Shown one piece after another: positions 1,624 through 63,924 of a stretch of 64,000 nt of DNA; within the stretch, counting starts at the first letter, position 1, and the number at the start of each line of letters is the position of its first letter. A program made the position numbers and the translations under genes. Origin of the DNA: a virus (lineage: Duplodnaviria > Caudoviricetes); the IMG/VR virus record IMGVR_UViG_3300032281_000616, positions 96,001 through 160,000 of that record. One strand, given 5' to 3'. Under the pieces are notes generated by a model. The model searched no databases, was not told the DNA's origin, and saw only the letters and a program-made list of their open reading frames with translations.

Positions 1624-1651
1624 GAAAATATTTAATTGATTAAATAGTTTT

Positions 1652-2791
1652 ATGTCAGAATTGTGTAATGTTCAACCAATATCAGCCTTTATGAGCACAA
1701 ATCTATCGTCTAAGATAGAGTGTTTTCAAGCTTTGGGTGCTAGAATTTTGAGAATGTTGGGTCATCCAATGATCAATGTTGAACTTCACCCTGACCAATT
1801 ATACGATTCTATTAGCATGGCTTGTGAATTTTATACACAATATGCTGGGTATACAAAGGAGTATTTGATATTTGATAGCAATCTATATGATAAAAATAAA
1901 GGTCTTAGATTGGACCATCTTTTCACAGTCGCTAATACAGGATTTACTTTATCAGAAAAATTAAATGAGGTCAAAAAATCCAATCCAGATTATAATGTTA
2001 CCTTAAGAGAAAATTTATACATTCTCACATCAGCCATACCCAGTTCATATTTCGTGTCAAGTTCTACCTTAAGTTCTTCTATCCCATCTGATGGTTTACC
2101 AGCAATGCAGGTAATGGAGGAATCTACATATTCACAATTGACAGCATTTAATTCATCTTTAAGTTCATTATTCATTGTATCACCAAAAAAACCTTTCACG
2201 GTTCAATGTGAAGAAGTTGAAAATGTTGTAAAATATAACAACATGTTTGATTACGATGTTATGGATTATCGAAAAGTCATTGATGTAATTGATTTCGTGG
2301 AAGGAAGCTCTAGTGGTGTCAATACATTGTTTTCTATGGAACAAACAATGGCACAACAAACATACTATTCTTACGCTATGGGTAATTTCGGATTTGATTT
2401 ATTATCATGGCATACTGTAAAAGACTGGCAAGATACTAGAGAAAAACTCTTAGCTATAAAAAGAGATATACATTTCGATCCAAGAACACAATACTTGAGA
2501 CTTATGCCACAACCAAAATCAAATAGATTTTATGGAGTCTTGGAATGTTATGTTGAACGCCCACTGAAAGATATTGTAAAAGAAAAATGGGTTCTCGATT
2601 ATGCCACAGCATTGTCTAAAATTATGTGGGGTCGTATACTAACACACATAACAGGGGTGACTTTATTGGGTGGTGGGACTTTAAATGGTGAATCTGTTTT
2701 ACAAGAAGGTGTTTCTGAAAAACAAGCATTGGAAGAATTTCTCATTGAGGGTGGTCACACTAGCGCACCTCCGATGATGTTTGTTGGATAA
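1652..2791 (+). CDS. gp13: Neck protein (T4 gp13-like)
   Basis: LGHPMINVELHPDQLYDSI...EFY, WVLDYATALSKIMWGRIL, GVTLLGGGTLNG motifs; late promoter at 1641-1646. Confidence 0.85.
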   Translation: MSELCNVQPISAFMSTNLSSKIECFQALGARILRMLGHPMINVELHPDQLYDSISMACEFYTQYAGYTKEYLIFDSNLYDKNKGLRLDHLFTVANTGFTLSEKLNEVKKSNPDYNVTLRENLYILTSAIPSSYFVSSSTLSSSIPSDGLPAMQVMEESTYSQLTAFNSSLSSLFIVSPKKPFTVQCEEVENVVKYNNMFDYDVMDYRKVIDVIDFVEGSSSGVNTLFSMEQTMAQQTYYSYAMGNFGFDLLSWHTVKDWQDTREKLLAIKRDIHFDPRTQYLRLMPQPKSNRFYGVLECYVERPLKDIVKEKWVLDYATALSKIMWGRILTHITGVTLLGGGTLNGESVLQEGVSEKQALEEFLIEGGHTSAPPMMFVG

Positions 2792-2826
2792 TTGACAAAA
2801 TATTCCATTTGACTAAATAATCTCGA

Positions 2827-5493: not shown

Positions 5494-5495
5494 TC

Positions 5496-6363: not shown

Positions 6364-6379
6364 ATGTGTAAATAATAGT

Positions 6380-7051
6380 ATGTTACGATTAAAATTGATG
6401 TATCCAGACCAAAACATCTTCGATGGTATGGAAATTGTAGAAGAACAAAACAAACTTGGAACAGGGAGCACTCTATATATTCAAGGACCATACACAGGTG
6501 TTGCGAAAAATAAAAACAAACGTGTATATCCTAAAGAAGAATTAGATAGAGATATTTCGAGATACATTAATGAAATGGTTAATACCAATAGATCGATGGG
6601 TGAATTGAATCACAGTAGCACCAGTGAGGTAAATCCAGAACGTGCCTGTCATATGGTAACTAAGTTATATGAAGACAATGGGACTTGGTATGGTAAATCT
6701 AAAATTTTATCAGGAGAAGGTTTACCAATTGGTAATTTGGTTAAAGGTTTGATTAATCAAGGTGTATCGCTTGGAGTTTCTACTAGATCTTTGGGAACCT
6801 TAGAAGAGTCAACCGATCATAATATCGTCAGGAATTTACATATTGTTGCTTGGGATATGGTAGCCGACCCAAGTTTCCCAACAGCATTTGTTAACGGAAT
6901 TTTGGAATCTCGTGAGTTTGTTATCGGCGATAATGGAAAATATGAAGAATTTTATTCTCGATTTGATAAGGGTATCTCAAAAATTCCAAGAAAAGATGCT
7001 GATTCTTATCTACGTGAACAAGTTATAAAATTTATCAACTCTCTTAATTAA
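6380..7051 (+). CDS. gp21: Prohead protease (T4 gp21-like)
   Basis: KNKNKRVYP, GELNH, GVSTRSLGTL, WDMVADPSFPTAF motifs. Confidence 0.92.
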   Translation: MLRLKLMYPDQNIFDGMEIVEEQNKLGTGSTLYIQGPYTGVAKNKNKRVYPKEELDRDISRYINEMVNTNRSMGELNHSSTSEVNPERACHMVTKLYEDNGTWYGKSKILSGEGLPIGNLVKGLINQGVSLGVSTRSLGTLEESTDHNIVRNLHIVAWDMVADPSFPTAFVNGILESREFVIGDNGKYEEFYSRFDKGISKIPRKDADSYLREQVIKFINSLN

Positions 7052-7059
7052 ATACTATT

Positions 7060-7680
7060 ATGAGCAATTCTAAGAAAAAAGAACAACCCAAGTGGCTTAG
7101 ACATCCTAAATCTCAACAAGAGAAAAAGGAGTTTGGTAAAGCCAAGGAAGAGGGTGTCCCAGTAAGAGGAAAACGCAAACCAGCTAATTTAGGAAATTTG
7201 TATGACGATAAAGAAATTGGTAGCAATATCAAAAAACAAAATAAATCCAAAAAGCCTTCCAGAGATACTATTCGAAAAGGAGAAGAAGACGAACAATCAC
7301 TTTCTAAACAAATGAAGAAATCAGGAAAGGTCACATTCAAAGGACCCAACGTGAAGGATCGTAAAAAATTCGCTCCAGCGACTAAAGTAGAAACACCCAA
7401 AAAAGGTAAAGGTTCTTATAATAGAAAAAACAAGAATGATGAAGATGAAGAATCTAAATCCTGTTGGAAGGGTTACGTGAAAAAAGGAATGAAAAAGAAA
7501 GGTGATAGAAAAGTCCCTAACTGTGTAAAGGAGTCCTATGAGGAAAACGCAACTATACATAGATTTGTTAATTCCGTTCTTTCTAAAAATTATTCTAAAG
7601 CTGATGACTATCTTAAAAGGATAGTAGAACAAAAACTAGCTAAAAAAATTAAAGCTGAGTTAAATACACCATTATTTTAA
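7060..7680 (+). CDS. Lys-rich prohead-core-associated protein
   Basis: Lies between gp21 and gp22; CWKGY...VPNCV motif; helical C-terminus; late promoter at 7049-7054. Confidence 0.6.
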   Translation: MSNSKKKEQPKWLRHPKSQQEKKEFGKAKEEGVPVRGKRKPANLGNLYDDKEIGSNIKKQNKSKKPSRDTIRKGEEDEQSLSKQMKKSGKVTFKGPNVKDRKKFAPATKVETPKKGKGSYNRKNKNDEDEESKSCWKGYVKKGMKKKGDRKVPNCVKESYEENATIHRFVNSVLSKNYSKADDYLKRIVEQKLAKKIKAELNTPLF

Positions 7681-7701
7681 TACAAAAGACTAAATATATC
7701 T

Positions 7702-8598
7702 ATGAGCCTTAAAAATCTGTTTTCAGAAGATGTTCAAAAGATTCTAACCGAAGAATCTTTGAATGCCATTCAAGAAGCTTTTGATTCCAAAGTTGAACTT
7801 GCAGTAGAAGCTGCATTGATCGAACAGGATGATCAATATGCTGATAAACTAAAATCACTTATCACTGTGCTTGATAAAGATCGCACTAAGAAAATGAAGC
7901 GTCTGGTTGAAGCCGTTGATAAGAACAATGCATCTAAACTCGTTAAGGTAGTTAAACTTTATGAGCGTAAGATCAATAAGGACTTAGATAAAGGTGCTAA
8001 AAATTTCAAAAAACAAATCGTTGAAACTGTTGGACAATTCATTGACGCATACATCGCTGAAGCAGTCGATGCTCAAGATATTGCCCAAGCTGTTAAAAAC
8101 AAATCCGCTTATAATGTTCTTGAGAACATGAGAGCAGTTCTGGGTGTTGATGTTGCTATGGTCAATAATTCTATTAAAGGTGCTGTTCTAGATGGTAAAA
8201 ATAGAATCGATAAGTTAGAAGAAGAAAACAACTCACTCAAAGGTAAACTTAATAAGTTAACCGAATCTTATGAAAAGGTTCAGGTTAAGTCTCTTCTAGA
8301 AGAGAAAACTGCTAAACTACCAGAAACCAAAAAGAACTTTATCCGTAAAGCTCTAGATGGTAAATCTGTTAAGTTTATTAATGAAAACTTTGATTATACG
8401 CTTCGTCTATTTGAGAAACAAGAGAAAGAAAAACTTGTAACTCTTAAAGAAGAAGCAATCAATAATCGGTCTGTCAAGCCCGATGTGGTTCCTAGACAAA
8501 AAATTGTAGAAGAATCACTAAATAATAATGATGATAGCCATGGTGACATGTATATCTCAGAGCTTTCCAAAACTTGGGGGACCAAAAAAGTATCCTAA
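7702..8598 (+). CDS. gp22: Prohead core scaffold (T4 gp22-like)
   Basis: Acidic coiled-coil protein directly upstream of the major capsid gene; late promoter at 7691-7696. Confidence 0.8.
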   Translation: MSLKNLFSEDVQKILTEESLNAIQEAFDSKVELAVEAALIEQDDQYADKLKSLITVLDKDRTKKMKRLVEAVDKNNASKLVKVVKLYERKINKDLDKGAKNFKKQIVETVGQFIDAYIAEAVDAQDIAQAVKNKSAYNVLENMRAVLGVDVAMVNNSIKGAVLDGKNRIDKLEEENNSLKGKLNKLTESYEKVQVKSLLEEKTAKLPETKKNFIRKALDGKSVKFINENFDYTLRLFEKQEKEKLVTLKEEAINNRSVKPDVVPRQKIVEESLNNNDDSHGDMYISELSKTWGTKKVS

Positions 8599-8666
8599 GT
8601 CTAAAAATCTCACAACGCTTATGAGGTCACAATGACCTGAACAAATATAGAAAGAAATAAAATTAT

Positions 8667-10191: not shown

Positions 10192-10226
10192 GAAACCAGA
10201 GGAACCGAAGATCCTCTGGTTTCTTC
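10192..10226 (+). terminator. Intrinsic terminator after the capsid gene
   Basis: 12-bp stem GAAACCAGAGGA/TCCTCTGGTTTC, 8-nt loop, followed by TTC. Confidence 0.7.
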
Positions 10227-10279
10227 GTGTCTGGAACGATATTTGTTGACATTTTAGGAGCATATGGTTAAATACTCTT

Positions 10280-11851
10280 ATGACAGATATCGACATCAAA
10301 GACAAACTTCTAAAAGTATCCAAGGAACAATACAAAGGATCTCTAAGATTTTTTAAACCAAAGCTTACTGAATTAATCATCGGTAAGGAAGCTCTGGATC
10401 ATATCAAAAAAAGAATAGACACTAAACTACAAAAATCACACACATTAATGCTGTATTGTTATCTGAATGATATTTATGAAACACCTAAATGTGTCTGTGG
10501 ATTTGATACAAAATTTAATACTACCACGAAGGAGTTTATGAAGTATTGTAGTAATAAATGTAGATTTGATAATTTCTCTGAGGTGGTGGAAGTCAGAAAG
10601 CAATCAAACTTAGAAAAATATGGAACAAGTAATTATCTTGCTAGTGAAGAGGGTAAGAGAAAAATAAAAGATTCTAATATTGAAAAATATGGTGTATCAA
10701 ACTACACACAGACTGATGAATATAAAGAGAGTGTTAGAGGGAAAAAGAATTCTCCTGAACAAATCCTTAAAACAAAAGAGGCGCATCTAAAAAGATCATA
10801 TACCAATCTTATTAAAAAATTTACCCACTGTAAACCTCTTTTCTCATTAGAAGAATTCGGTGGAGTGAGAGGATATAAACAATATCCTTGGTCATGTAAT
10901 AAATGTAAATCTAGTTTTATATCCTCATGTGATAATGGAAGTTCTCCTATATGTAATTATTGCGAACCTACAGGATCTAAACATGAAGTTGTTTGTAAAG
11001 AATTGCTAGAATCATTAGAGGTGGATTACAAATATCGATACAGAAAGCTACCATCTGGTAAAGAAATAGATCTATTTGTTCCAGATAAAATGTTTGGAAT
11101 AGAACTATGTGGGTTATATTGGCACTCTACCGCTGGTCCTAGTTACGCAAAACCAAATCATGTTAATAAACTAAACGAATGCGAAGAGAATGGAATAAAA
11201 TTATTTACAATATTTGATGATGAAATGTATAATCCAGTAAAGAAACGAATAGTTTTAAATAAAATTAAAAATTCAGTTGGACAAAACAAGAGAAAAATAC
11301 ACGCCAGAAAATGTAAAATAATTGAATTGGATTCGAATATATGTAGTAAATTTTTGGAAAAATATCACATTCAAGGTGCTATAGGTTCCTCTTATAAATA
11401 CGGTTTAACATATAAAAATAGGCTCGTTGCAGTAATGACATTTAATAAAGGAAGAACTTCAACTGGACACAAACCCGTAGAGGGGGAATGGGAACTTGGT
11501 AGATATTGTACGATCTTTAATTTTAATGTAGTTGGTGGTGCGAGTAAATTATTAGCTCATTTTATAAAAAATATAAACCCCACTAAAATCTATTCATATG
11601 CTGATCGAAGATGGAGTAATGGTGATATGTATAATAAAATAGGCTTCACTTTTGTTAAAAATACTACACCAAACTATTGGTATACTAAAACGTTCAAAAC
11701 TAGAGAACACAGAGTCAAATTTCAAAAGCATAAGCTAGTTGATATGCCTTCTTACGATGAGTCTCTGACAGAAGAAGAAATAATGAAAAGAGAAAAATAT
11801 TTTAAGATTTGGGATTGTGGGTCAAAACTTTATGAGTGGACTAAATTTTAA
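10280..11851 (+). mobile_element. Free-standing Hef-like homing endonuclease
   Basis: N-terminal Zn/KYG repeats (CSNKC, LEKYG, IEKYG), nuclease core EIDLFVPDKMFGIELCGLYWHS, C-terminal HIQG...LVAVMTF...GGASKLL...SYADRRWSNG...IWDCG domain. Confidence 0.8.
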
Positions 11852-11906: not shown

Positions 11907-11946
11907 TAGTAAATTATACGAATTGAATAATTACTAAATATTTAAT

Positions 11947-12468
11947 ATGAAGTTTGATCAGTTATTTACTATATTTGAAAGTTTGGATAACCCATACCCA
12001 TGGAAGAATACATTTAAAACATCGCAAGTGATCGATGATTGGGATGATGATGGAGAAGAATATCCCAAAGATGTATTAGACCCTGTTCAAATGATTCATT
12101 TTAAGACTGAAAATGGAACACCGTATATGTGGTATGCTAGGCAAAATAGATATAATGATACATACTGGGAAATAGCTTTTGGAATGATCAAAGGTCAAAG
12201 AGAAAATGGTGAATATCAATTGGATATTGAAAAGACTGGAACCGGGAATGCATTTAGAATCTTTGCAACAATTATAGATATAACAAATTCTTTCATAGAT
12301 TATGATGGTGATAATTATGATGTTAGAGTATTAACTATATCATCTAAGGGGAATAATCGAACCTCTTTATATAAAAAATATTTAATTCCCAAAATAGAAG
12401 GATTTGATATATCACATGAACAAAATAATGGAGATGAAACCGAACTCCACCTAAGCAGAAATTTTTAA
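11947..12468 (+). CDS. Hypothetical late protein
   Basis: 173-aa ORF with TAAATA-N6-ATG; TGTGNAFRIFATI motif. Confidence 0.75.
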   Translation: MKFDQLFTIFESLDNPYPWKNTFKTSQVIDDWDDDGEEYPKDVLDPVQMIHFKTENGTPYMWYARQNRYNDTYWEIAFGMIKGQRENGEYQLDIEKTGTGNAFRIFATIIDITNSFIDYDGDNYDVRVLTISSKGNNRTSLYKKYLIPKIEGFDISHEQNNGDETELHLSRNF

Positions 12469-12514
12469 CTATTTAATATATTGTGAAATATTCCCAATTT
12501 GACTAAATAATAAT

Positions 12515-12964
12515 ATGGCTAATTATATTTTTCAGACAAATCTTTTATCTGCCGCTAAAACAGGATTCCCACCATTAGTGGGAACATCATTATCAGCTAC
12601 TGGCGTATCTTTTCTTTCTGGTGCTGGTGTAGTATTTGCATCCAGAAATGTGGGTATTGTTTCTCTATCGACTGATGACGTTGGTATTGCATTTAATCCA
12701 GTTACTCTCACTATTGCAACCAGTTCTCTACCAACATTCAATCTTACAGCTTATCCATCGGTCACAGTCAATGTTGCTGGATCTGTCTTTAATATCCCAG
12801 CTAATTTAACAACATCAAATTTCGCTGTGGTTAAAACGACTCCCGGTGATTACACAGTATTTCCTTGGTTATCTACAACCACAACTGTTCCAACATCTGC
12901 TCTATCAGCCACTCATGAAGTATCTACACAAGATTCTCGTCGTAAGCGTCTATTGGGTTATTAA
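12515..12964 (+). CDS. Probable virion structural protein
   Basis: S/T/V-rich 149-aa ORF with TAAATA-N5-ATG and a basic C-terminus RRKRLLGY. Confidence 0.7.
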   Translation: MANYIFQTNLLSAAKTGFPPLVGTSLSATGVSFLSGAGVVFASRNVGIVSLSTDDVGIAFNPVTLTIATSSLPTFNLTAYPSVTVNVAGSVFNIPANLTTSNFAVVKTTPGDYTVFPWLSTTTTVPTSALSATHEVSTQDSRRKRLLGY

Positions 12965-14446: not shown

Positions 14447-14462
14447 TATCTTAAATACTAAT

Positions 14463-16049
14463 ATGTCTCTTATATATAGGAACAAAACAATCTTGAATCA
14501 ACGTGGTGGATCTTTAGATATCGATAACACCACTGAACAAGAGAAGATAAAATTATCTCATAGATCTGGATCTAATATAAATTTTACCAATGTCGTAAAC
14601 TCGGAATTAGCTACAAATAATAAACAGACTAATGTAGTAAATGATATTTTTGAAACTTCTGGTGGTGATAAAACAGTTTATACCAATAAGGTTTCGACAA
14701 ATAGAGTTGGAGAAAATTCTTATACTTTAAAAGGATTTACTAATGAGTCTCAAATTCAAGCATTTGAAGATTGGAAAAATACTTATAGAGAAATAGCACT
14801 AAAGAATTCCGAATTTAAAACCACCAGAGGTGGATATAGTATTCCTAATGGAACAACTACAAATCTAAATGGAGAAAAATCAAAAAATCCAACCCTTGGT
14901 AATGATATTCTATCGGTTTCTAACACATTCACTGGATATAAGGGTATTCCTATAAGGAAAAGTGATAAGGATGAAGTGGTTGAATTCTCCAGAGTCTTAG
15001 ATTATAAAAAAACCAAACCAGCTACAAATAGAAAGTTAGATTCTAAACTTATAGAAAAATCCGCTGGTATATCTGGATCAAATGCTCCCGGTGTTGTCGA
15101 GTTTGGTGGTTCTGTATCTTCATCGACTGAAGGTGGAACATGGACATTGAATTCTATTAGTCTTGATAAGGATATTTTAGATATTCAAGATAAATTAACT
15201 CCAATAGAATCTAAAATGGGTAATGGTGGAGATGATATTAATTTTATTAAACGTCATAGATATGAACAAATCGGAGCGACCATAAACGATTATCCATCTA
15301 TAAGAATAGATGAAAAGGGTAGGAGTCAACCACTAGAGATGTTAATATCTACAATTGGTGCTTATAAAAATCACGATTATGTTCCTCATGTAGAGGAGAT
15401 AGATAACAGTTCTAATTTTCCATGTGGGAATGACGATAAAGTAGTAGGGAATAGAATCGCTAGAACGGTTGGCTCTGGTGGTATCAATTTAAAAACTACT
15501 GGACCTATGGAATTGGGTGGTGCTACTTTAAAGGCAGGATTCAAAAAAATAAATATAAACGCTTCTCATGGAGTTCAGATATCTTCTGAGAATGGATTGG
15601 AATTACAATCCTTAAAAACGATTGTGTTGAGAACAAACCGTCAGGTATATGTTGAGTCATCATTAGGAATTAATAAAAATTTGATCGTTGGTGGTGGTCA
15701 ATATGTAGAAGGAGAATTGTATTGTCAGCATATAACAGCACCTTTAGAGGTTCATCAGACCCAAGACACAACTGTATTGGGTAAATTCGCTACAGATGCT
15801 AATAGAAGATTAGTAATCAGTGAGACATTGATAGGTGGTCAATGGTATCCATCATATGCCTTAGCTGACGACGATCTTATTTTGAATTATCCCCACAGTC
15901 ACCATCATCACGGTATACCTATGAGGTTAACTACCAGTAATGAAATGGTGAGAGAATTCGCTCATAAAGAGGGTATGAATTCTCATGGAACAACGGTTCA
16001 ATCTTTACCTCAAATACACGAGAGAAAGTTAGCTCAAAAGTTAGTGTAA
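14463..16049 (+). CDS. Baseplate hub/spike C-terminal beta-rich protein
   Basis: EQEKIKLSHRSGS.I.F motif typical of the gp5 region after the OB fold; beta-helix-like stretches; C-terminal HSHHHH; own TAAATA-N5-ATG at 14452-14465. Confidence 0.7.
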   Translation: MSLIYRNKTILNQRGGSLDIDNTTEQEKIKLSHRSGSNINFTNVVNSELATNNKQTNVVNDIFETSGGDKTVYTNKVSTNRVGENSYTLKGFTNESQIQAFEDWKNTYREIALKNSEFKTTRGGYSIPNGTTTNLNGEKSKNPTLGNDILSVSNTFTGYKGIPIRKSDKDEVVEFSRVLDYKKTKPATNRKLDSKLIEKSAGISGSNAPGVVEFGGSVSSSTEGGTWTLNSISLDKDILDIQDKLTPIESKMGNGGDDINFIKRHRYEQIGATINDYPSIRIDEKGRSQPLEMLISTIGAYKNHDYVPHVEEIDNSSNFPCGNDDKVVGNRIARTVGSGGINLKTTGPMELGGATLKAGFKKININASHGVQISSENGLELQSLKTIVLRTNRQVYVESSLGINKNLIVGGGQYVEGELYCQHITAPLEVHQTQDTTVLGKFATDANRRLVISETLIGGQWYPSYALADDDLILNYPHSHHHHGIPMRLTTSNEMVREFAHKEGMNSHGTTVQSLPQIHERKLAQKLV

Positions 16050-19182: not shown

Positions 19183-19337
19183 AATTTTATATAAATGTTC
19201 GTGTAAACTTTGCTTGATTCTAAACCATCTTCCTCTCAAAGTCAACTCGTTTCGTTCGATTATTTAGTCTCCAAAATGGCTCAAATCAAGAGCGTAGAAA
19301 TATATCCGATATGATAAATAAAGGACTAAATAAGATT

Positions 19338-22307
19338 ATGATAGTTAAAAAGATACTAATGTTGTTAACCGAAAACAATGCATCTGATATCGTTTCTGGT
19401 AATATAGTTAAAAGAGTCAAGGATATATTCACGAATCTATATTATACCGATGATGTGACAGAAAAGAACGATATCGGTATGAATCAGACAGATAAAATCA
19501 ATTCGAGAACATATATTTTACCTTATTTTGATCAAGAAGACGATGCCGTAACTGTACAAATATTGTACAGAATGATGAGAATACTCAGAAATTATAAAAA
19601 CACACAAGTTAGAAATTATGACCAACTGGAGATATCTGTGAAAGATTTGTTGAAGGATAGAGTGAAGGAGGTTGAGTCTGAAACTAGGAAAATCATAATT
19701 GATCATACCAAGACATCATACGGAAAGGTTTTAGTTACTTATCCAGATGATATATCACCAAGATCTAATTTATCTAAACAAATAAAACAAGCCCAAAATA
19801 TATACTTTTCTCAAAATAATACACCGAAGGAATCAGATAATTACGGTAATTACGATTACCCAAGATTTAAATTTTTCAGTAAAAACAAAGAATCTTTAGG
19901 AGATAAACAATTCTATGTGAAATTAGAATTGGCTAAGTTGATAAATGCTTTAGTTTTTCCTAATGTAACAGTCGAAGAGATTGGAAATACAACATCGAGT
20001 GAAGAAAATCCTATAACAAATAACAAAGAAACTAAATCATCAGAATTATCAATCAAATTTGTAAAAACTATAAACACCCCATATGGTAAAAAGCATCAAA
20101 TAGAATTACCACAATCAAAATCTTATGGTGTGTATCAAGATGCTAAGTCTAGGGGATATACACCAAAATTGATGGCTTTCGATTTCAATACCAAAAATCA
20201 TTTAATATCCAGCAGCCCAAGTGAGTATAAAATACTCAAATCTTTATTTGATAAATACGGTTTAAACACATCTGAATTAGATTCATTATATTCCGATGTT
20301 GAAGAACCGATAAAAAATGAATCCGAAAAAGGATTAATATTTACGAATTTAGAGTCCGATAAAATTGGATTATCGTATGTAAGAAATCAACCAATTGAAT
20401 CGAAGGAATTTTTGAAAAATTTAATACAGTATATATTTTATGATTATTCTTGGAATTCTACATTATATCGATACGAAGTATCAGCGGATTATAAGCAGTT
20501 AATGATGTTTAAAGATATAATGGAAAGATTTGAATTTGATATAAAGGAATTAGAAAAAATAATAAAGGAAAAGATTAAGATTGGTGTAATAGATGATTCA
20601 GAAAAGGCTGAAGGAGAATTGAATCCCCAATTTAAAAATATTATAGATAATAAATTAAATGAGAATTATCCCAATAGTAAATTTGAACTATACGATTTAC
20701 AAAAAGAAGGTGTTAAATTTTTAACATCTAGAAAGTATGCTATTCTAGGCTCCGAAACAGGAGCCGGGAAAACTATACAATTTATATATGCTGCTGATTT
20801 ATTGACCAGAGAAAAGAAAGAAAATGTATTGATCGTCACTTTGAAAGCTGTTCAAAAACAAATAGTGCAAGAAATAATAGATGTTTTGGGAGAAGAGGCG
20901 AGATCAGAAATATCGACAGATCCAATGAACCCAAAACGATGGACGATTCTTAGATATCCCAATTTTTCAAGTGGAAATAATTTAGAAAATGTCATAGATA
21001 AATTATTATTTACAAAATTTAAAGTTCTTATTCTAGACGAATTGCACAGAGTCAAACACGAAAAACGAGGAAGTAAAGTAGTTATAACATCGGCAAACAT
21101 AGAAAAGATATCCAAAAATATACCCATAAGGTGGGGAGCTACAGCAACATTATCATCTAACGAACCTATAAATGTTAGAAATCAACTAAGATTATTGGGT
21201 CATCCATTGGGTAATATATCGATTGGAAAATTCAAAAAAGAATTTTGTGGTATGGTTCTTAAAGATATAAGACGAAAACCATCTAAAAAGGTTTATAACG
21301 ACGAGGATGATTTAGACAATGATTACGGACAAAATTATGGTGGCGCGACAAAGGCGTATGTGAACGGAACCATAGAGCAACAGTTGGAAGCAGCCGAAAA
21401 TTTACATCGGTGGTTATCCTTAACGGGTGTTTATATCAGACATAGTAAAAAGGATATGAGAGCGGCCAAAGGAGAAAAAATGCCTGATGCCAATATCGAA
21501 AAAAAATCAAATCCTATAAATAAAGACCTTTTAAAAATCATGGTAGACCACAAATTAAAATCGTACAAAGACGAAGATTTGGAAATATCTAAACTTATAG
21601 CATTTAGAGAGAGTATTGCTCAACTCAAGGTGCAGGATACCGTGAATGAAACAATCAAAATTATAACAGAAAACCAAAACGATTCAACACACAACTATGC
21701 AAAATCTAAAGTTCTAATATTTACAAATTTTGCTCAGTCAGGGAAGTCATTATATACACAATTATCGGAAAAATTGCAAAATATAAATCCAAAATGGAAA
21801 GTTTACACATATTTGAGCGGAACACCAAAAGATCAAATAATTAATGTTAAGAAAAATATGGAACATAAGGATTCGAAGGTTCTGATAATGAGTATGAAAA
21901 TGGGTGGGACTGGTATTTCATTTCCGAATACTTTTGCTAATATGTTAATCAATGATTTTGATTGGACCCCAGAATCGATAGAACAAAGTGAGGGTAGAAT
22001 TTTTAGAATCAATACTGTGCAAAATGTCAATATCAAGTATATGTTAGCTGATGGGAAAGATCAAGAACTTTTTGAAAAAGTGGAATTGAAGAAAAAGATA
22101 GCTGAAATTATTCAAACATATAGACAGAATTATTTGGAATCAGAAAATGGTGCAGAGTGGGTTTCTAAAATAGTTGATTTGCAGAAAGAATTGATAAAGA
22201 TAGATGATGATATCAATTCCATTACGGCTAGTGACGTAAGTGGAAATTTAGCTGAATCGTTTGAAGAATTCTTCAATATATACTCATCCATTAGAATACT
22301 TAAATAA
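19338..22307 (+). CDS. SNF2-family (SF2) helicase/ATPase
   Basis: LYDLQKEGV, SETGAGKT, ILDELHR, GATAT, LIFTNF, GGTGISF, DWTP...EQSEGRIFR; start set by TAAATA-N5-ATG at 19327. Confidence 0.88.
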   Translation: MIVKKILMLLTENNASDIVSGNIVKRVKDIFTNLYYTDDVTEKNDIGMNQTDKINSRTYILPYFDQEDDAVTVQILYRMMRILRNYKNTQVRNYDQLEISVKDLLKDRVKEVESETRKIIIDHTKTSYGKVLVTYPDDISPRSNLSKQIKQAQNIYFSQNNTPKESDNYGNYDYPRFKFFSKNKESLGDKQFYVKLELAKLINALVFPNVTVEEIGNTTSSEENPITNNKETKSSELSIKFVKTINTPYGKKHQIELPQSKSYGVYQDAKSRGYTPKLMAFDFNTKNHLISSSPSEYKILKSLFDKYGLNTSELDSLYSDVEEPIKNESEKGLIFTNLESDKIGLSYVRNQPIESKEFLKNLIQYIFYDYSWNSTLYRYEVSADYKQLMMFKDIMERFEFDIKELEKIIKEKIKIGVIDDSEKAEGELNPQFKNIIDNKLNENYPNSKFELYDLQKEGVKFLTSRKYAILGSETGAGKTIQFIYAADLLTREKKENVLIVTLKAVQKQIVQEIIDVLGEEARSEISTDPMNPKRWTILRYPNFSSGNNLENVIDKLLFTKFKVLILDELHRVKHEKRGSKVVITSANIEKISKNIPIRWGATATLSSNEPINVRNQLRLLGHPLGNISIGKFKKEFCGMVLKDIRRKPSKKVYNDEDDLDNDYGQNYGGATKAYVNGTIEQQLEAAENLHRWLSLTGVYIRHSKKDMRAAKGEKMPDANIEKKSNPINKDLLKIMVDHKLKSYKDEDLEISKLIAFRESIAQLKVQDTVNETIKIITENQNDSTHNYAKSKVLIFTNFAQSGKSLYTQLSEKLQNINPKWKVYTYLSGTPKDQIINVKKNMEHKDSKVLIMSMKMGGTGISFPNTFANMLINDFDWTPESIEQSEGRIFRINTVQNVNIKYMLADGKDQELFEKVELKKKIAEIIQTYRQNYLESENGAEWVSKIVDLQKELIKIDDDINSITASDVSGNLAESFEEFFNIYSSIRILK

Positions 22308-22311
22308 GATT

Positions 22312-22653
22312 ATGGACAAAGGTTTATTTGATGCGTATGAGAACATTCTAGAGGAATCTTGGGGTGGATTAGCAATGAATCGCCCACCTATTAAAGGGGG
22401 CGCACAGGCACCACAGGACGCTAAGAACACCCTATCTAGTGCTAGTTCTAAGATCGGTATAGAGCAGGGTAGTTTATTCAACCAATCTCAATCTAGTGGA
22501 CAGAATCCTTATGAGCAAGAAGAATCTGGAGCTATTGACAAACAAAGAGTATTTGATATAATTGATCATCTATCAAAGGATTTGGATTCATCTAAGATCA
22601 CCGATAGAACTGCTGTAATGGTTCTTGGTAAACTCAAAAAATTAATAAAATGA
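22312..22653 (+). CDS. Hypothetical late protein
   Basis: TAAATA-N5-ATG at 22301-22314; 113 aa. Confidence 0.7.
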   Translation: MDKGLFDAYENILEESWGGLAMNRPPIKGGAQAPQDAKNTLSSASSKIGIEQGSLFNQSQSSGQNPYEQEESGAIDKQRVFDIIDHLSKDLDSSKITDRTAVMVLGKLKKLIK

Positions 22654-24001: not shown

Positions 24002-24012
24002 TAAATAAGTAT

Positions 24013-24675
24013 ATGACTTGCGATACCGTAGTAATCAGTGATATTCATCTAGGTAGTCCTGTGTGTAATAGAGAAAAAGTGTTGAAGGTTCTTTCTTTAG
24101 ACTTTAAAAGACTTATTATAAATGGTGATTTATTCGATAATTATTCATTTAAAAGATTTAATAAAAAAGACTGGGATATTCTAAGTAAACTTAGAAAATT
24201 AAGTAAAACACATAATATCATCTTTATCCATGGCAACCATGATTCGAATGGAGAATTTATGAGTGCTATTATGGGTATGGAATTTGTCGAATACTACGAA
24301 TTTGAACTCAACAATTCTAAATTCTTTTTGGAACATGGTGATAAATATGATCATTGGATCAAACATAAACCATTTATTACATGGTTCTTTACTGGGATAT
24401 ATTACTGGTTACAGAGAATCGATAAATCACATCGAATTTCCAGACTGACAAAAAAATTAAGCAAATCTTGGATTCAAGCTAAGGATATTGTTAGAACTAA
24501 GTTTGTAGAAAAGCGTGGTAAAAAATATGATGTCTTAATGGCAGGTCACACACACCATGCTGAAATCGTTGATTGTGGTGCCTGTGTTTATGTAAACAGT
24601 GGATCTTTCTGTGAAGTAAAATGTTCGTATATTAAAATTTATGAACATGGAAACTTTGAATTAATTTTCATGTGA
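24013..24675 (+). CDS. Calcineurin-like metallophosphoesterase (LpxH/YbbF-like)
   Basis: ISDIHLG, NGDLFD, HGNHD, EHGD, AGHTH metal-binding motifs. Confidence 0.85.
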   Translation: MTCDTVVISDIHLGSPVCNREKVLKVLSLDFKRLIINGDLFDNYSFKRFNKKDWDILSKLRKLSKTHNIIFIHGNHDSNGEFMSAIMGMEFVEYYEFELNNSKFFLEHGDKYDHWIKHKPFITWFFTGIYYWLQRIDKSHRISRLTKKLSKSWIQAKDIVRTKFVEKRGKKYDVLMAGHTHHAEIVDCGACVYVNSGSFCEVKCSYIKIYEHGNFELIFM

Positions 24676-24686: not shown

Positions 24687-24723
24687 TTGACTTTATAAAA
24701 CACTAAGGTATGATTATCGTATG
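24687..24723 (+). promoter_or_regulatory. Promoter combining TTGACT, AAACACTA and TATGAT, with the ATG at the predicted +1
   Basis: TTGACT-TTAT-AAAACACTA-AGG-TATGAT-TATCGT-ATG. Confidence 0.75.
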
Positions 24724-24957
24724 TCATCTGAACTGACCCAACACATCGAAGCTATGGGATTAATCTTCACTGAAATGGAGAGACGTAGAAAAGAAGACCC
24801 TGATGATTTCAAAGATCTCTTAGATCAAGCTGATGGTAATTTCGGAATAGCCTATGCCTTTTTATTTTTGTTGGTTGAGGATAATCTCAGGGATCGAATG
24901 ATAATAAAAAGACACGCGAAAAAACCACAACTATTAGAATGTATTTATGGAAATTGA
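24721..24957 (+). CDS. Hypothetical protein
   Basis: 78-aa ORF at the predicted +1 of the motif promoter. Confidence 0.7.
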   Translation: MSSELTQHIEAMGLIFTEMERRRKEDPDDFKDLLDQADGNFGIAYAFLFLLVEDNLRDRMIIKRHAKKPQLLECIYGN

Positions 24958-25102
24958 TCAACAACTAATGAAACAAATCATCAGCATCTTAAAATCCATG
25001 TATGACATGGCTCAAGACGAAAACTGGGATGAATCAGATGCTCAATCTTTGATTATGGATGGTGCTGATTTATACGCAGACTATTTTAGAAATAATAATT
25101 GA
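24947..25102 (+). CDS. Small acidic hypothetical protein (51 aa)
   Basis: ORF read by hand, overlapping the upstream stop (MEIDQQLMKQII...). Confidence 0.5.
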   Translation: MEIDQQLMKQIISILKSMYDMAQDENWDESDAQSLIMDGADLYADYFRNNN

Positions 25103-25248
25103 ATAATTTCACTTCCTACTGGTCGGGTGGTAGGCTATACGGTATGATTACTTCATTAAATCCGTTACTGTTGCGCCAATGTGAAGGGCAATCCGAAACG
25201 GCTCAGTCTCTAGCTAAAAGGTTCTGATCAAACTGATTGAGACAAACT

Positions 25249-25323
25249 GCGCCAATGATGTAATTGGTAACATAATAGACTTCCACTCTATTCTTTAGGA
25301 TTCGAGTTCCTATTGGCGCACCA
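25249..25323 (+). tRNA. tRNA-Gly (TCC)
   Basis: GCGCCAA/TTGGCGC-A-CCA; ATAGA-CTTCCAC-TCTAT; TAGGA-TTCGAGT-TCCTA. Confidence 0.85.
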
Positions 25324-25325
25324 AT

Positions 25326-25397
25326 TCTCTCTAAGCATAGATAGCGATGCTCTGGCTTTGTAACCCAGATAGGTGAGCGCAAGTCTCACAGGGAGAT
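25326..25397 (+). tRNA. tRNA, probably Thr (TGT), atypical
   Basis: TCTCTCT/AGGGAGA; GCAT/ATGC D stem; C31:C39 mismatch gives a 9-nt loop CTTTGTAAC; T loop CGCAAGT. Confidence 0.6.
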
Positions 25398-25402
25398 CAT
25401 TT

Positions 25403-25609
25403 ATGAAAACTTTTTATAGAGTAGTTTGTGACGAACATAAACATATGTGTAAAGCTTTAATGATAGAAAATCATGATTGTTCTTTAGAAGATTCAAATAA
25501 AAATTTGGCTATTTGGTTGAAATATCACCATGGTTGTAATTTGAGATTGGTTCATAGTGAACAAGCACTAGATCAGCTATTATGCGAATATGATGATTAC
25601 ATAAAATAA
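25403..25609 (+). CDS. Hypothetical protein
   Basis: Probable start MKTFYRVVC just after the tRNA (the ORF-track start overlaps the tRNA). Confidence 0.6.
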   Translation: MKTFYRVVCDEHKHMCKALMIENHDCSLEDSNKNLAIWLKYHHGCNLRLVHSEQALDQLLCEYDDYIK

Positions 25610-25610
25610 T

Positions 25611-25928
25611 ATGAATGTAGAAATTAAAGAAGTTTATGCTGCTTATGAGACAGTAGATGACTATGGTCGTCTCGGAAGTTGTAGAGGAATATTCACATCT
25701 AGAAGTGGGGCAGATAAAGAAGCTATTGGAATAGGGTGGTGGGATGGTATAGGATCAGTAATAGCTAAAAATGTTATAATTGTTGATGGTGTTGTTTATT
25801 TACTTGAGTCTCCAACGCCTGTAGAATTGGATGTTAGTAGTGAAGAAGCCAAAGCAGCGAGAGAAAAGATCAAAGCTTCTGCATTAGCTAAACTTAGTGT
25901 GGATGAAAGAAGGGTATTGGGGGTGTAG
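25611..25928 (+). CDS. Hypothetical protein
   Basis: 105-aa ORF, tightly packed with its neighbours. Confidence 0.7.
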   Translation: MNVEIKEVYAAYETVDDYGRLGSCRGIFTSRSGADKEAIGIGWWDGIGSVIAKNVIIVDGVVYLLESPTPVELDVSSEEAKAAREKIKASALAKLSVDERRVLGV

Positions 25929-36367: not shown

Positions 36368-36372
36368 ATCGG

Positions 36373-37209: not shown

Positions 37210-37214
37210 ATCAG

Positions 37215-38939
37215 TTATTTAATTCTACTCAATAATTGAGAAAAGGTTTTTATTTTGCTTTCTTTAAATTGGAAGTATCCTTGTTCTGGGGGAGATTTTC
37301 TAGAGCGTAATGTGAGAACTGGAATTTCTTCTCGACCAGTTTGAACAGCACCAGAATGTAAGTAATTATAGAAATTGTTTATTTGATTTTGATAATCGTC
37401 AAAATGAATATTTAAAGATTTGAATATTTTAAAATCTCTCAAATAATTATCAAGAGACATATCTTCATCAAATGAAGGAATATATGAAATAACTATTTTC
37501 CCTCGTTCTTCTTCCACATATATATGATTAACGTTTTTTCTAATGGGTGAGAAAAATTTCTCTTCCAAGGCTGCTTGTTTAATTCTCATATTTCTGTCTT
37601 CTGGATATGTTTTCACTGGATTGTCGAATGTCAACACGAAAAAATTTGATCTTTTTCTCTCTGTCTTTTCGAAGGTGTTTCGGTATTTATCTGAAACAAT
37701 ATTATCCAAAACTTTATTTTTAAAGGTTTTCCATGAAGATGAGATATAGCCTTTCTCTAATAGATTTTCATTTAAACGCTCTTCGAATTTTTCTATATCA
37801 CTTTCATAACTATCATCGTAATTCCTCAAGTCATCTAAAAAAGACCTTAGTTTATCCATTCTGGTTTTAGATCGATAATCTGATTGGCTATCATACTCGA
37901 TAGTAACATTTACCCCATCTTCTGAAAAATTATCGGAATACAAATAATCTGGATATATATTAATATCATTCAGAGCATTTTTTACTATCTCTATAAAATC
38001 TCTATCATCAAAATAATCTTCCAGTCCTTCAAAATTATAAGTGATAAATCCAATAGCATTATAATACTCATCAGATATATCATCTGTATTCAAATGATAA
38101 TGTTTAAAATCGTATTGAGAAACTAAATCATTCAATTGTTTTTCAACATACTCAGCGATAATTCCATCGTATCCCTCACCGACCCGTTCATTATAACTAA
38201 CTAAAGCGTCCTCAGAATTATCATTAGCCACTACATATTTGGTCATCTTTTCAGTCTCCATCATGTCAATCTGATTCTGATTCAGAGATGTATCGCGGTC
38301 TTGAACATCCATGCATTGATTAGAGTCCAAATGAAGTAAAGTATATGGTTCATCATTTTCTGTGAAATAATAATACGGAGCACCATAATTATCAAAGTAT
38401 CGAGGATCTTTGACACACCACTTCGTATTACGAAAATGTTTAGCACCAGCTTCAGATTCGGTAACTACATACAATTTATATTCATCATACTCCTCCATTA
38501 GAGTAATACCTTTCTCCTTCTCCCTTACCATCTCACCCTTGGTCTTAATACCCGAAAACTTATCAACCACTTCAGCTAAGTCTCCATAAGATTTAAAACG
38601 ATTTATGTCCCTATACTCTGCTGGAAATTGAGGTTTTATTTTAAGAGTGGTGAATAGTTTTAGAGTGTTGTTTACTTTATCCGAATCTTCTTCCCCTCTC
38701 AAAATACCGTTCTTAAACATCTTAAGAATCCAATTCAGGTACATTCCATTAGGGGATGGATCAAACATCTCGGAAACCCACCGAATAAAGTCGGCTTTAT
38801 TGTCATCGTTTTCAATCTTAAAACCACCTATATTGTTTGATAAAGGAACCAAGGATAAGAGCTTTGGTATTTTTTCTTCCACGCCTTCTTCTAATAAAGT
38901 CGAATAAATGTCGGATAATTCACACAAGGATAAATGCAT
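37215..38939 (-). CDS. Large hypothetical late protein
   Basis: TAAATA-N5-ATG sets the start at 38939; FDPSPNGMYLNWI, DINRFKSY, TKWCV motifs. Confidence 0.75.
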   Translation of the reverse strand: MHLSLCELSDIYSTLLEEGVEEKIPKLLSLVPLSNNIGGFKIENDDNKADFIRWVSEMFDPSPNGMYLNWILKMFKNGILRGEEDSDKVNNTLKLFTTLKIKPQFPAEYRDINRFKSYGDLAEVVDKFSGIKTKGEMVREKEKGITLMEEYDEYKLYVVTESEAGAKHFRNTKWCVKDPRYFDNYGAPYYYFTENDEPYTLLHLDSNQCMDVQDRDTSLNQNQIDMMETEKMTKYVVANDNSEDALVSYNERVGEGYDGIIAEYVEKQLNDLVSQYDFKHYHLNTDDISDEYYNAIGFITYNFEGLEDYFDDRDFIEIVKNALNDINIYPDYLYSDNFSEDGVNVTIEYDSQSDYRSKTRMDKLRSFLDDLRNYDDSYESDIEKFEERLNENLLEKGYISSSWKTFKNKVLDNIVSDKYRNTFEKTERKRSNFFVLTFDNPVKTYPEDRNMRIKQAALEEKFFSPIRKNVNHIYVEEERGKIVISYIPSFDEDMSLDNYLRDFKIFKSLNIHFDDYQNQINNFYNYLHSGAVQTGREEIPVLTLRSRKSPPEQGYFQFKESKIKTFSQLLSRIK

Positions 38940-38953
38940 AATAGTATTTATGC

Positions 38954-38990
38954 TTGACTTAAGCAAAATCGATGGTATAATATACTCATG
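38954..38990 (+). promoter_or_regulatory. Sigma70-type promoter with the ATG at the predicted +1
   Basis: TTGACT-N16-TATAAT-N6-ATG. Confidence 0.75.
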
Positions 38991-42295: not shown

Positions 42296-42523
42296 TTATG
42301 ATTCAAAGGTATCTACGATCATATTGTAGAACTTACAGGCGAATTCCTCATCAGATTTGATACCCGGAAGATTACATATCTTCCATGATTTTTCCTCGAT
42401 AAGATTTTCTATAGTAACAGAACTAGTATTACCTACAATCAAACCGAGATACTTCAGTTCATTCTCAGTAAGTTCAAGGGTAAAAATACGCTCAGATGGA
42501 GGAGTAATATTAGTAATTTTCAT
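42296..42523 (-). CDS. Hypothetical protein
   Basis: Motif promoter with N6-ATG. Confidence 0.75.
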   Translation of the reverse strand: MKITNITPPSERIFTLELTENELKYLGLIVGNTSSVTIENLIEEKSWKICNLPGIKSDEEFACKFYNMIVDTFES

Positions 42524-54459: not shown

Positions 54460-55193
54460 CCGCACCCGGACTCGAAAATACACTTTTAGACTAAATAGTA
54501 TTATGAAGATGCTTAATTGTGATAGGTGTAATGAAGAATTCGAAGTTTCATATGACCAATGGAAGAATCGGAGGAGTAAAAAGAAAATCCATAATAGGAA
54601 TAATTATTGTTCGCTGGAATGCAGATTATTGGGACAAGGAAAAAGCCCAAGAATAGAAGTTTCGTGTGAAAGTTGTGGTTGTTTTTTTATGAAACATTAT
54701 AGCGAGGTTACGAGAACCCCTAAAAATTTTTGTTCTAGATCTTGCTCTGCTACATATAACAACACTCACAAAACAAAGGGTAATCGCAGAAGTAAGTTAG
54801 AAAAATGGTTAGAAGAACAATTAACTGTGTTATATCTAGAACTAGAAATTCTATATTCGAACAAAACCACCATTAATTCTGAGCTTGATATTTATATACC
54901 ATCCCTAAAATTAGCCTTTGAACTTAATGGAATATTCCATTATGAACCAATATATGGTGAAGATAAGCTAAATCAAATCCAAAACAATGATAATAGAAAA
55001 TTTCAGGCTTGTTTAGAGAAAGGTATCGAATTATGTATTATCGATACTTCTCAACACAAATACGTTAAGCCTTCTACTTCACAAAAATATCTTGATATTA
55101 TCACACATTTAGTTAACTCTAAATTAGAGTCATCCAAAACAGACTACGTGGAAGTAGTGTGATTTCCTGTTTCTGACCGCACCCGGACTCGAA
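54460..55193. repeat. 17-bp direct repeat of the tRNA-Leu 3' end flanking an endonuclease gene
   Basis: CCGCACCCGGACTCGAA at 54460-54476 and 55177-55193. Confidence 0.88.
54503..55162 (+). mobile_element. Zn-finger plus PD-(D/E)xK-like putative homing endonuclease
   Basis: CxxC...YCSLEC, CxxC...FCSRSC, ELDIYIPSLKLAFELNGIFHY; own late promoter at 54492. Confidence 0.78.
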
Positions 55194-61427: not shown

Positions 61428-61428
61428 A

Positions 61429-61746: not shown

Positions 61747-61927
61747 TTTTAATAAAATTCAAATCCTTTTTACTATACCATCCAATCCAACTTTCATCAA
61801 ATTCTACAATATATTTTCTAATTTTAGAATCCCAACCACTTACAACACCCGTTTTATTGAATGTTAACATTTTGTTGTTTTTTATAGAGACTATAGTGTT
61901 TGTATATTTACTCATACCCTTATCCAA
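61712..61927 (-). CDS. Small SH3-like hypothetical protein
   Basis: GVVSGW....YIVEFD..WIGWY...DL pattern. Confidence 0.5.
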   Translation of the reverse strand: MDKGMSKYTNTIVSIKNNKMLTFNKTGVVSGWDSKIRKYIVEFDESWIGWYSKKDLNFIKNDIQRTTNRRP

Positions 61928-62457: not shown

Positions 62458-62485
62458 AGTGTTATTTTATTCTAGTGTTTTATAA

Positions 62486-63163
62486 TTAATATCCCCACGC
62501 TTCTAGCGTATGTTTAAATGGTTTACCTTTAATACCCATAACAAGATCAAGCATTTCCTTGGCAATATCATTGATTTCCTTTTGTGCATGATCCGAGTAT
62601 CTTAGTTTCAACAAATTTGCAAAGCTTCTCATATTGAAACTAATATCTGCTTGGATCTGAGAATTGTATGTTTTGAAGAATCGGGCAGATTCTTTTGCTC
62701 TTTTGCGGCCAAGAGTAGGCTCAAGGTCTTTTAAACATTGATGATATAGCTGATTCCCCATTTCTGTGTATCTCTGTAGAATTTCACTCCAATTATCTCC
62801 AAGATAGTAGTCTAGTTCTTGAGCGTCAGCTTTTATGTTTTCCCAATCTTGCGGGATATAATACTTATCTTCTTTAAGTTCCTTATATCTTGCGGATTCA
62901 GCATTCATACTAGAAATCCTATGTTTCAATAAATGAATATGTGAAGCAATATCTGTATCGACCAAAAAATGAACCATGCCTTTTTCAAAAGGTGTTTCGT
63001 GTCCATTATCCCATAGATCTTTAATCAACTTGGGAATACGTTCTTCTTTATCAGGTGATAAATTTCTGCTTGTGCTAGTCCACGCTGAACATGCGATGAT
63101 TTTATCTGACCCATAGTATCCAATTAACGAAACGGTGTTGGAATTGTTATTAGTATTGTTCAT
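62486..63163 (-). CDS. thyX: Flavin-dependent thymidylate synthase
   Basis: GHETPFE, LLKHRISSMNAESARY, NMRSFANLLKLR, HAQKEI. Confidence 0.9.
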   Translation of the reverse strand: MNNTNNNSNTVSLIGYYGSDKIIACSAWTSTSRNLSPDKEERIPKLIKDLWDNGHETPFEKGMVHFLVDTDIASHIHLLKHRISSMNAESARYKELKEDKYYIPQDWENIKADAQELDYYLGDNWSEILQRYTEMGNQLYHQCLKDLEPTLGRKRAKESARFFKTYNSQIQADISFNMRSFANLLKLRYSDHAQKEINDIAKEMLDLVMGIKGKPFKHTLEAWGY

Positions 63164-63845
63164 ATTTAAAATGTTTATATTTATTTGGTGGATTACCTTT
63201 TCGAATGTTTAAAAGCGATGTTACACTGACCCCACTCAATCTACTCAATTCTTGTATTGAACCAGCTTCAATTTCGGTAGAGTCTATAATGTTGATTAAT
63301 TTACATTTTATAGATATGGGTGTTAACCTACCTTTCAATTTTTTACTTATATTTGGGCGTTTAGTTCCTTTAAGTTTGCTGGGAACCCCTCTCAATTTAG
63401 AAGATCTTTTTTCTATTTGTTCTGGTGTAAAAACCTGTAATTTTCTTTTCTGTCTTATCTTTTCCTTTGTGGATTCTGAATGTATACGTCCTCGATTAGC
63501 ATCCCCAATCTTTTTTTTATGTTCTTCGGATTTGGGTTTGTTCTGTTTCGGTGGTATATTTCCACCAGAAGCTATATTCATTCCAATACTTGCATCCGTG
63601 CTGTTTTTCTCATTTATCCAATAAATTTCGCGTTCAGATAAATCTTCTTCTGATACTTTCTCCAACACTTCAAATTTATGATTAGATACCCCATATTTTT
63701 TAAATGAATTGTGTAGATATGGTTGATTTCTTGTATTACTTAAAAATCTATAATGCATCCACCTTTTATGAATATTTGCAGATAGCCCTATATAAATTTT
63801 ATTAGAAGGACTTGTGATGATGTAAATACCTGATATGATTTCCAT
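63150..63845 (-). mobile_element. GIY-YIG homing endonuclease with NUMOD3 repeats
   Basis: SGIYIITSPSNKIYIG; KSEEHKKKIG and SESTKEKIRQ repeats; overlaps the thyX start by 14 nt. Confidence 0.9.
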
Positions 63846-63924
63846 ATCATTATTTAATCTATCAACCTATTAATTCTACTTTATTATCCATATTATCAAA
63901 AATTATTATCAGAAAACGTTTATA

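Follow-up and report, generated by a model that had tools for sequence, protein, structure and literature searches.

The late genes of bacteriophage T4 have promoters of the form TATAAATA at positions −13 to −6, which depend on gp55 together with gp33 and the clamp protein gp45. In Aeromonas phage Aeh1, the late promoter is CTAAATA and runs from −12 (Nolan et al. 2006, PMC1524935). Leaderless expression is known from Thermus phage phiYS40, in which most middle and late transcripts are described as leaderless, with IF2 going up and IF3 going down during infection (summarized in PMC3594737). In the bacteria of GeneMarkS-2 "group C," for example Mycobacterium tuberculosis, the Pribnow box lies 6 to 8 nucleotides (nt) from the start codon, and a promoter box fixed at this distance is an accepted genomic mark of leaderless transcription that was validated in actinobacteria by differential RNA sequencing (dRNA-seq) (PMC6028130). 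Here we analyze a 64,000-nt stretch of phage DNA (the window), which represents bases 96001 to 160000 of the 202,205-bp virus record IMGVR_UViG_3300032281_000616, together with the remainder of that record, its uncultured relatives, and the pelagimyophage HTVC008M (NC_020484), a T4-like phage of Pelagibacter that is available in culture. In the phage studied, the hexamer TAAATA, which very probably is its gp55-dependent late promoter, sits directly against the start codons of many genes, suggesting that its late mRNAs have almost no leader.

Genome and relatives

The record has terminal repeats and a G+C content of 34%. A simple codon-usage gene call, used throughout as the gene set, gave 307 genes that cover 94% of the DNA. 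Judged by its proteins, the phage is a deep, uncultured freshwater branch of the T4-like phages, because its major capsid and portal proteins share only 27 to 33% identity with their cyanophage or T4-like coliphage counterparts and its gp13-like adaptor had no match whatever among deposited phages. In IMG/VR, the capsid protein has at least 238 relatives, the best 80 of them at 64 to 95% identity. Spacing counts given below for relatives come from 80 related uncultured loci, 996 kb in total.

Distance from TAAATA to the start codon

We counted the distance between TAAATA and ATG on both strands, writing N5, N6, and N7 for 5, 6, and 7 intervening nt and calling an open reading frame (ORF) long if it had at least 50 amino acids (aa). 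In the window, 15 long ORFs began at N5, 3 at N6, and 1 at N7. The sequence-only reading of the window had reported at least 17 starts with TAAATA 5 to 6 nt upstream, and the 18 at N5 or N6 bear this out. The back-to-back divergent pair at 1629/1641 is present as well, with both motifs at N5.

The whole genome contains 292 copies of TAAATA. An ATG followed at N5 in 54 cases, 52 of which opened long ORFs, at N6 in 20 cases (14 long ORFs), and at N7 in 9 cases (7 long ORFs). Each remaining distance from 0 to 30 had 1 to 11 ATGs, and long-ORF starts averaged 1.2 over distances 8 to 30, these flanking distances serving as the control for the peak. A genome-wide distance count, which the sequence-only reading had proposed, therefore yields a sharp N5 peak of 52 long ORFs against about 1 elsewhere. 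The peak was specific both for the start codon and for the hexamer. At N5 the codon was ATG in 52 cases and GTG or TTG in none, and no one-base variant of TAAATA exceeded 8 occurrences at N5; TAAAAA had none at either N5 or N6. The spacing of TAAATA to ATG is genuine and occurs much more often than chance would give.

The same spacing was found in the 80 related loci, where N5 occurred 346 times, N6 60 times, and N7 47 times, compared with about 7 at any other distance. Altogether, some 100 uncultured contigs related to this phage follow the N5 rule. In relatives that could be aligned, the spacing was constant while the letters of the spacer differed, and the layout of the divergent pair at 1621 to 1654 was likewise retained with changed spacer letters. 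In more distant relatives (about 50% identity in gp13) the spacing was looser, at 5 to 13 nt. A side-peak at N26 in the relatives is spurious, being produced by a Met codon that is conserved in frame seven codons downstream.

The sequence-only reading had also used the spacing to move several ORF starts. The shift to 14463 was supported by relatives with in-frame stop codons 0 to 5 codons before the aligned ATG, and that to 22312 by two relatives; for 19338 there was a near-identical relative only.

TAAATA as a probable late promoter

TAAATA is very probably the gp55-dependent late promoter of the phage, as the sequence-only reading had proposed from its likeness to the T4 late promoter. Seven independent lines favor a promoter over a ribosome signal; among them are a gp55 homologue, placement before late genes, enrichment at the first genes of runs, and depletion inside genes on both strands.

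The gp55 homologue lies at genome positions 70313 to 70774 on the minus strand (tblastn with T4 gp55, E = 3e-10; phrog_234, "late sigma transcription factor," E = 4.5e-25) and adjoins gp47 and gp46, as in T4. The motif was present before orthologues of the T4 late genes gp13, gp18 (sheath), gp20 (portal), gp21 (protease), and gp6, and absent before those of gp43, gp44, gp46, gp47, gp55, and uvsW. Some enzyme genes and homing endonuclease genes carried it too. The orthologue of gp15, at genome positions 94416 to 94434 (about 1,570 nt before the window), reads TAAATA-N6-GTG, a TGA standing in frame two codons before it, and this GTG is the sole non-ATG start linked to TAAATA.

Genes whose upstream neighbor lies on the opposite strand need their own promoter. 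The late-type motif preceded 23 of 42 such genes but only 48 of 264 others, a threefold enrichment. Some divergent intergenic regions measure just 27 to 28 nt, which is the length of two motifs and their spacers.

Compared with synonymous-codon shuffles, TAAATA inside genes was depleted to 0.56× on the sense strand (z = −5.9) and 0.68× on the antisense strand (z = −4.8). No such depletion was seen for ten composition-matched hexamers (0.89 to 1.06×), TATAAT, or ACACTA. Depletion on the antisense strand speaks against a signal that is read solely on mRNA. Start-linked copies also had a context of their own: they favored R-Y just upstream (R-Y-TAAATA rather than T-A), with C at −12 in 37% compared with 13% elsewhere. 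This C or T at −12 resembles the CTAAATA of Aeh1.

Orthologues of the gene at 14463 in some relatives have no TAAATA, and their ATG lies 1 to 5 nt past the upstream stop codon, as was seen in four relatives. Because these motif-less orthologues abut the upstream stop, the motif is not needed for translation. In this comparison a motif-bearing start and a stop-abutting start interchange during evolution, which amounts to promoter turnover. We also considered whether the motif might be no more than the TAA stop codon of the upstream gene, and rejected this since no more than 11 of the 71 late-type genes fit it.

From promoter position to probably leaderless messages

Since the T4 late promoter spans −13 to −6, the N5 spacing puts +1 on the A of the ATG. 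The −10 hexamers of sigma70 promoters span −12 to −7. In the genome studied, the sigma70-type hexamers and those of a second, AAACACTA-type class lie at N6, 1 nt further out than TAAATA, and this one-base offset is what would be expected if all of the promoter classes aimed +1 at the same A. Position −1 was a pyrimidine in 89% of the N5 cases and never G, followed by A at +1, and it was a pyrimidine in all 29 of the strict N6 cases of the ACACTA class. A pyrimidine at −1 is the usual context of a transcription start site.

We found no enrichment of Shine-Dalgarno (SD)-like 4-mers, which preceded 13.6% of motif-less starts compared with 11.3% of internal ATGs; an SD 4-mer stood before 2 of the 72 late-type starts (3%). 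The SD enrichment that the sequence-only reading had named as evidence against its view was thus not found. The sequencing runs listed as containing this DNA were all DNA metagenomes, with no RNA run among them. Contig ends, taken as a stand-in for transcript ends, carried no usable signal: among 47 whole IMG/VR contigs, no terminus fell at the ATG of a long ORF, and four termini had an ATG 2 to 7 nt inside.

Taken together, we think it likely that late mRNAs of this phage begin at the AUG of the gene itself. What the sequences show directly is the motif with its spacing, specificity, and distribution, the gp55 gene, and the lack of SD sequences; the precise point of initiation and the way in which ribosomes load are inferred. 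According to this model, the late promoter was shifted up against the start codon in this lineage. RNA polymerase would start on the A of the ATG at N5, giving late mRNAs with no leader, or with a leader of 1 to 2 nt at N6 or N7, and ribosomes would presumably bind these messages directly through the 5′-terminal AUG. Genes without a promoter of their own, most of which overlap the stop codon of the preceding gene or lie right against it, would presumably be translated through coupling of termination and reinitiation. SD pairing would not be used by the phage at all.

Other promoter classes and the remaining genes

The late-type motif was found at N5 to N8 before 72 of the 307 genes (23%). ACACTA-N3-TAnnnT-N6-ATG preceded a further 31 genes, and an ATG stood exactly 15 nt after ACACTA 44 times genome-wide, compared with 0 to 9 times at every other distance. 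Copies of AAACACTA-N3-TAnnnT-N6-ATG stand before small genes at 42296 to 63163 on the minus strand of the window and also at genome positions 136 to 193 kb, with very rigid spacing; genes of this class had a median gap of 22 nt to the upstream gene. TAnAAT lay at N5 to N7 before 13 genes, and inspection of the remainder revealed about a dozen more promoters of the form TTGACx-N16/17-hexamer at N6 to N9. Canonical sigma70 promoters (TTGACx, N16 to N17, TAnnnT, often with TGn) lie 6 to 9 nt before early-type ATGs, for example that of the gp44 clamp loader gene (genome positions 24693 to 25650). The sigma70 promoter at 38954 that the sequence-only reading had picked out, with TATAAT-N6-ATG, is present as described. 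The host promoters implied by these sites look canonical, so the host probably has a standard sigma70, which argues against Bacteroidota.

The nonlate classes account for about 44 to 60 genes, and a start-abutting promoter is present on roughly 38 to 45% of all genes. Among 174 motif-less genes with an upstream neighbor on the same strand, 96 overlap or abut the stop codon of that neighbor and 32 start no more than 10 nt away from it. The earlier description of start-abutting promoters as near genome-wide was therefore too strong if applied to genes, since the 72 late-type genes and the 44 to 60 others leave a majority, which mostly overlap or abut the stop codon before them. The gene for the major capsid protein also lacks a start-abutting promoter. 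The description does hold for recognizable promoters. The interpretation offered by the sequence-only reading is thus supported in part.

Features in the window

The start-abutting promoters of the window are collected in Table 1. Besides that of the homing endonuclease gene, several further late-type sites have TTGACA 16 to 17 nt before TAAATA, and such sites may be used both early and late. A 12-bp GC-rich hairpin at 10192 to 10223, about 50 nt past the capsid stop codon and before the homing endonuclease gene, is the best terminator-like site within the first 20 kb.

Table 1. Start-abutting promoter sites in the window (positions count from the first nucleotide of the window)
Feature	Positions	Strand	Gene and remarks
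Divergent pair	1621-1654	both	CAT-gaaaa-TATTTA-attgat-TAAATA-gtttt-ATG
Divergent pair, minus arm	TAAATA 1634-1629, N5, ATG 1623	-	96-aa gene
Divergent pair, plus arm	TAAATA 1641-1646, N5, ATG 1652	+	gp13-like head-tail adaptor
TAAATA-N7-ATG	2814-2829, ATG 2827	+	888-aa tail-fibre-like gene
TAAATA-N5-ATG	6369-6382, ATG 6380	+	prohead protease, gp21 orthologue
TAAATA-N5-ATG	7049-7062, ATG 7060	+	206-aa gene; TAA of the motif is the protease stop codon
TAAATA-N5-ATG	7691-7704, ATG 7702	+	298-aa gene immediately before the major capsid gene
TTGACA-N17-TAAATA-N5-ATG	10246-10282, TAAATA 10269, ATG 10280	+	523-aa homing endonuclease gene
TAAATA-N6-ATG	11935-11949, ATG 11947	+	173-aa gene
TAAATA-N5-ATG	12504-12517, ATG 12515	+	149-aa gene
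TAAATA-N5-ATG	14452-14465, ATG 14463	+	528-aa gene; motif places the start at 14463 instead of TTG 14436 further upstream
TAAATA-N5-ATG	19327-19340, ATG 19338	+	989-aa helicase-like gene
TAAATA-N5-ATG	22301-22314, ATG 22312	+	113-aa gene
TAAATA-N5-ATG	24002-24015, ATG 24013	+	phosphoesterase-like gene right behind the tRNA cluster
TAAATA-N5-ATG	34108-34121, ATG 34119	+	254-aa gene
TAAATA-N6-ATG	36365-36379, motif 36379, ATG 36367	-	tRNA nucleotidyltransferase gene, 34838-36367
TAAATA-N6-ATG	37207-37221, motif 37221, ATG 37209	-	NUDIX hydrolase gene, 36373-37209
TAAATA-N5-ATG	38937-38950, motif 38950, ATG 38939	-	574-aa gene
Consensus sigma70 promoter	38954-38990; TTGACT 38954-38959, N16, (TGg)TATAAT 38976-38981, N6, ATG 38988	+	216-aa gene
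TAAATA-N5-ATG	54492-54505, ATG 54503	+	219-aa gene, opposite in direction to the early array
TAAATA-N5-ATG	63843-63856, motif 63856, ATG 63845	-	231-aa gene, 63150-63845

Evidence against and alternative explanations

A number of observations weigh against leaderless late messages made from a gp55 promoter. The genome has 219 further copies of TAAATA, with a weaker flanking context. The clamp loader gp44 was found, but the gp45 clamp was not, either by tblastn with T4, cyanophage, and HTVC008M queries or with PF02916 and PF09116, and two candidate genes neighboring gp44 had no PHROG match; no gp33 turned up, though no search was aimed specifically at gp33. Factors that might bias ribosomes toward leaderless messages were not evident either, as no phage protein matched the ribosomal protein S21, IF1, or IF3 families. 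Leaderless translation is inefficient in Escherichia coli. Late-type genes often lie in tandem with few terminator-like hairpins between them, and much of their mRNA may therefore come from read-through and carry the ATG in its interior. Finally, a start-abutting promoter is missing from the major capsid gene (8667); the 68 nt upstream of it (8599 to 8666) contain a hairpin, GGTCA-CAA-TGACC, followed by an A-rich stretch that lacks an SD sequence.

The capsid gene was also the subject of a metagenome scan with the capsid protein, which returned about 12 short contigs (1.5 to 1.8 kb) carrying the capsid gene alone. Three of them begin 41 to 54 nt before the ATG, two of these, by eye, in the hairpin region, and most end 8 to 70 nt past the stop codon. 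None was near-identical to a long DNA contig. These contigs may be transcripts or assembly breaks.

The alternative that survives best takes TAAATA to be a late promoter, as we do, but holds that most copies of each message arise by read-through, UAAAUA-N5 then serving as an unstructured, SD-independent landing site or as a short gap for reinitiation. The fixed spacing would in that case serve transcription and translation alike. In keeping with this, the median distance of tandem late-type genes to the upstream stop codon is 13 nt, in 11 cases the preceding gene ends on the TAA of the motif, and in 12 more the motif overlaps the upstream gene; the scarcity of terminator-like hairpins fits as well, as does the translation of motif-less genes from A-rich contexts without SD sequences. 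This explanation does not by itself account for the pyrimidine at −1, and the motif-less orthologues that simply abut an upstream stop indicate that the motif is dispensable for translation. We therefore regard it as unlikely in this form, while the AU-rich motif may also aid internal initiation or coupling on such read-through transcripts as are made.

Another possibility, which we consider improbable, is that TAAATA at −11 to −6 is purely a translation signal on leadered mRNAs made from promoters at other places, acting as a non-SD ribosome-binding motif or as a target for some RNA-binding factor of the phage. The motif does occupy the usual position of an SD sequence in a genome that lacks them, and Bacteroidota have a non-SD motif, rich in A, that is similarly spaced; in Flavobacterium its core is TAAAAA, about 7 nt before the start codon (PMC6028130). 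In the phage, however, TAAAAA is unused at N5 and the other one-base variants are hardly used there, and the other promoters are of the canonical TTGACx/TATAAT kind, unlike those of Bacteroidota. Just 23% of the genes carry the motif, which is concentrated at sites where a promoter is obligatory, including the divergent regions of 27 to 28 nt that have no room for another. The antisense depletion, the match to T4-family late promoters in a genome that encodes gp55, and the occurrence of the motif 18 to 32 nt upstream of starts in HTVC008M, with an SD sequence in between, argue against it too.

Very improbable is a processing site, in which a nuclease would cut polycistronic late RNAs at UAAAUA-N5 and so yield leaderless mRNAs posttranscriptionally: the fixed spacing fits, and the short capsid-only contigs hint, weakly, at discrete RNA species, but antisense depletion, run-initial enrichment, and identity with the gp55 promoter core are left without an account.

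Implications

The broader proposition is that an abundant freshwater clade of T4-like phages gave up SD-led initiation, its sigma70-type, AAACACTA-type, and gp55 late promoters all firing on the AUG and its other genes being coupled stop to start, with HTVC008M representing an intermediate stage. On the sequences compared here, we judge the case for and against this proposition to be evenly balanced. If it is true, leaderless mRNAs and translational coupling suffice for the entire late program of a phage with no SD sequences in 202 kb, and leaderless initiation can sustain the bulk synthesis of virion proteins, tail sheath and portal among them, in aquatic Gram-negative hosts of an ordinary kind, where such messages would be translated efficiently. 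For hundreds of contigs from uncultured phages, the spacing rule fixes the start codons exactly and maps the promoters, and it can take the place of the SD sequence as a signal for gene callers. HTVC008M can be grown on Pelagibacter HTCC1062 and holds both promoter layouts, which makes the idea directly testable in culture.

Comparison with known systems

The gp55 late promoter and leaderless phage expression on a genome scale are both already known. What appears to be new, and is well supported by the sequence statistics, is a gp55 promoter fused to the start codon. In T4, the textbook late-transcription system, the minimal gp55 promoter to our knowledge always has a leader with a ribosome-binding site behind it. 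Our literature searches (CTAAATA; leaderless T4-like phage or phage late genes) returned no description of gp55-type promoters that abut start codons, in HTVC008M or elsewhere; the Melnitz/OM43 paper lists late promoters without taking up how far from the start codons they lie.

The phage shares with T4 the TAAATA core, the gene neighborhood of gp55, and the placement of the motif before orthologous late genes. The core is invariant here, in keeping with the short, strongly conserved TATAAATA-like core of the T4 type. The two differ in that 14 to 32 nt separate TATAAATA from the ATG in T4, with a GGAG-type SD sequence between them, whereas the 5 nt found here leave no room for one. Cyanophage S-ShM2 resembles T4, its motif lying 21 to 28 nt from the ATG with an SD sequence present.

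Like the phage studied, phiYS40 is a large myovirus, and it expresses its later gene classes genome-wide as leaderless mRNAs, as is proposed here. phiYS40 differs in that its host phylum is commonly leaderless, its promoters are not of the gp55 type, and its leaderlessness was determined experimentally rather than deduced from sequence. The resemblance to group C bacteria lies in the short, fixed distance from box to start, the enrichment at operon-first genes, and the absence of SD sequences. The box here differs in being a gp55 promoter, accompanied by two other classes, and internal genes also lack SD sequences, where group C uses ribosome-binding sites.

The most informative comparison is with HTVC008M. 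Bases 1 to 100000 of this phage contain 11 cases of TAAATA-N5, all followed by ATG and mostly without SD sequences; a divergent TAAATA-N5 pair lies at 18916/18943. HTVC008M encodes ribosomal protein S21 and RegA, neither of which was found in the phage studied. SD sequences precede 47% of its starts, and about half of its genes, including those for portal, sheath, and capsid, keep AAGGAG-type SD sequences and leadered late promoters. In the leadered layout the motif lies 18 to 32 nt upstream of the start, and an SD sequence was present in between in 7 of 7 cases, compared with 2 of 12 genes at N5 or N6. HTVC008M thus has both layouts, with SD sequences only where there is room for them, and a ribosome-binding role for the motif is therefore hard to uphold.

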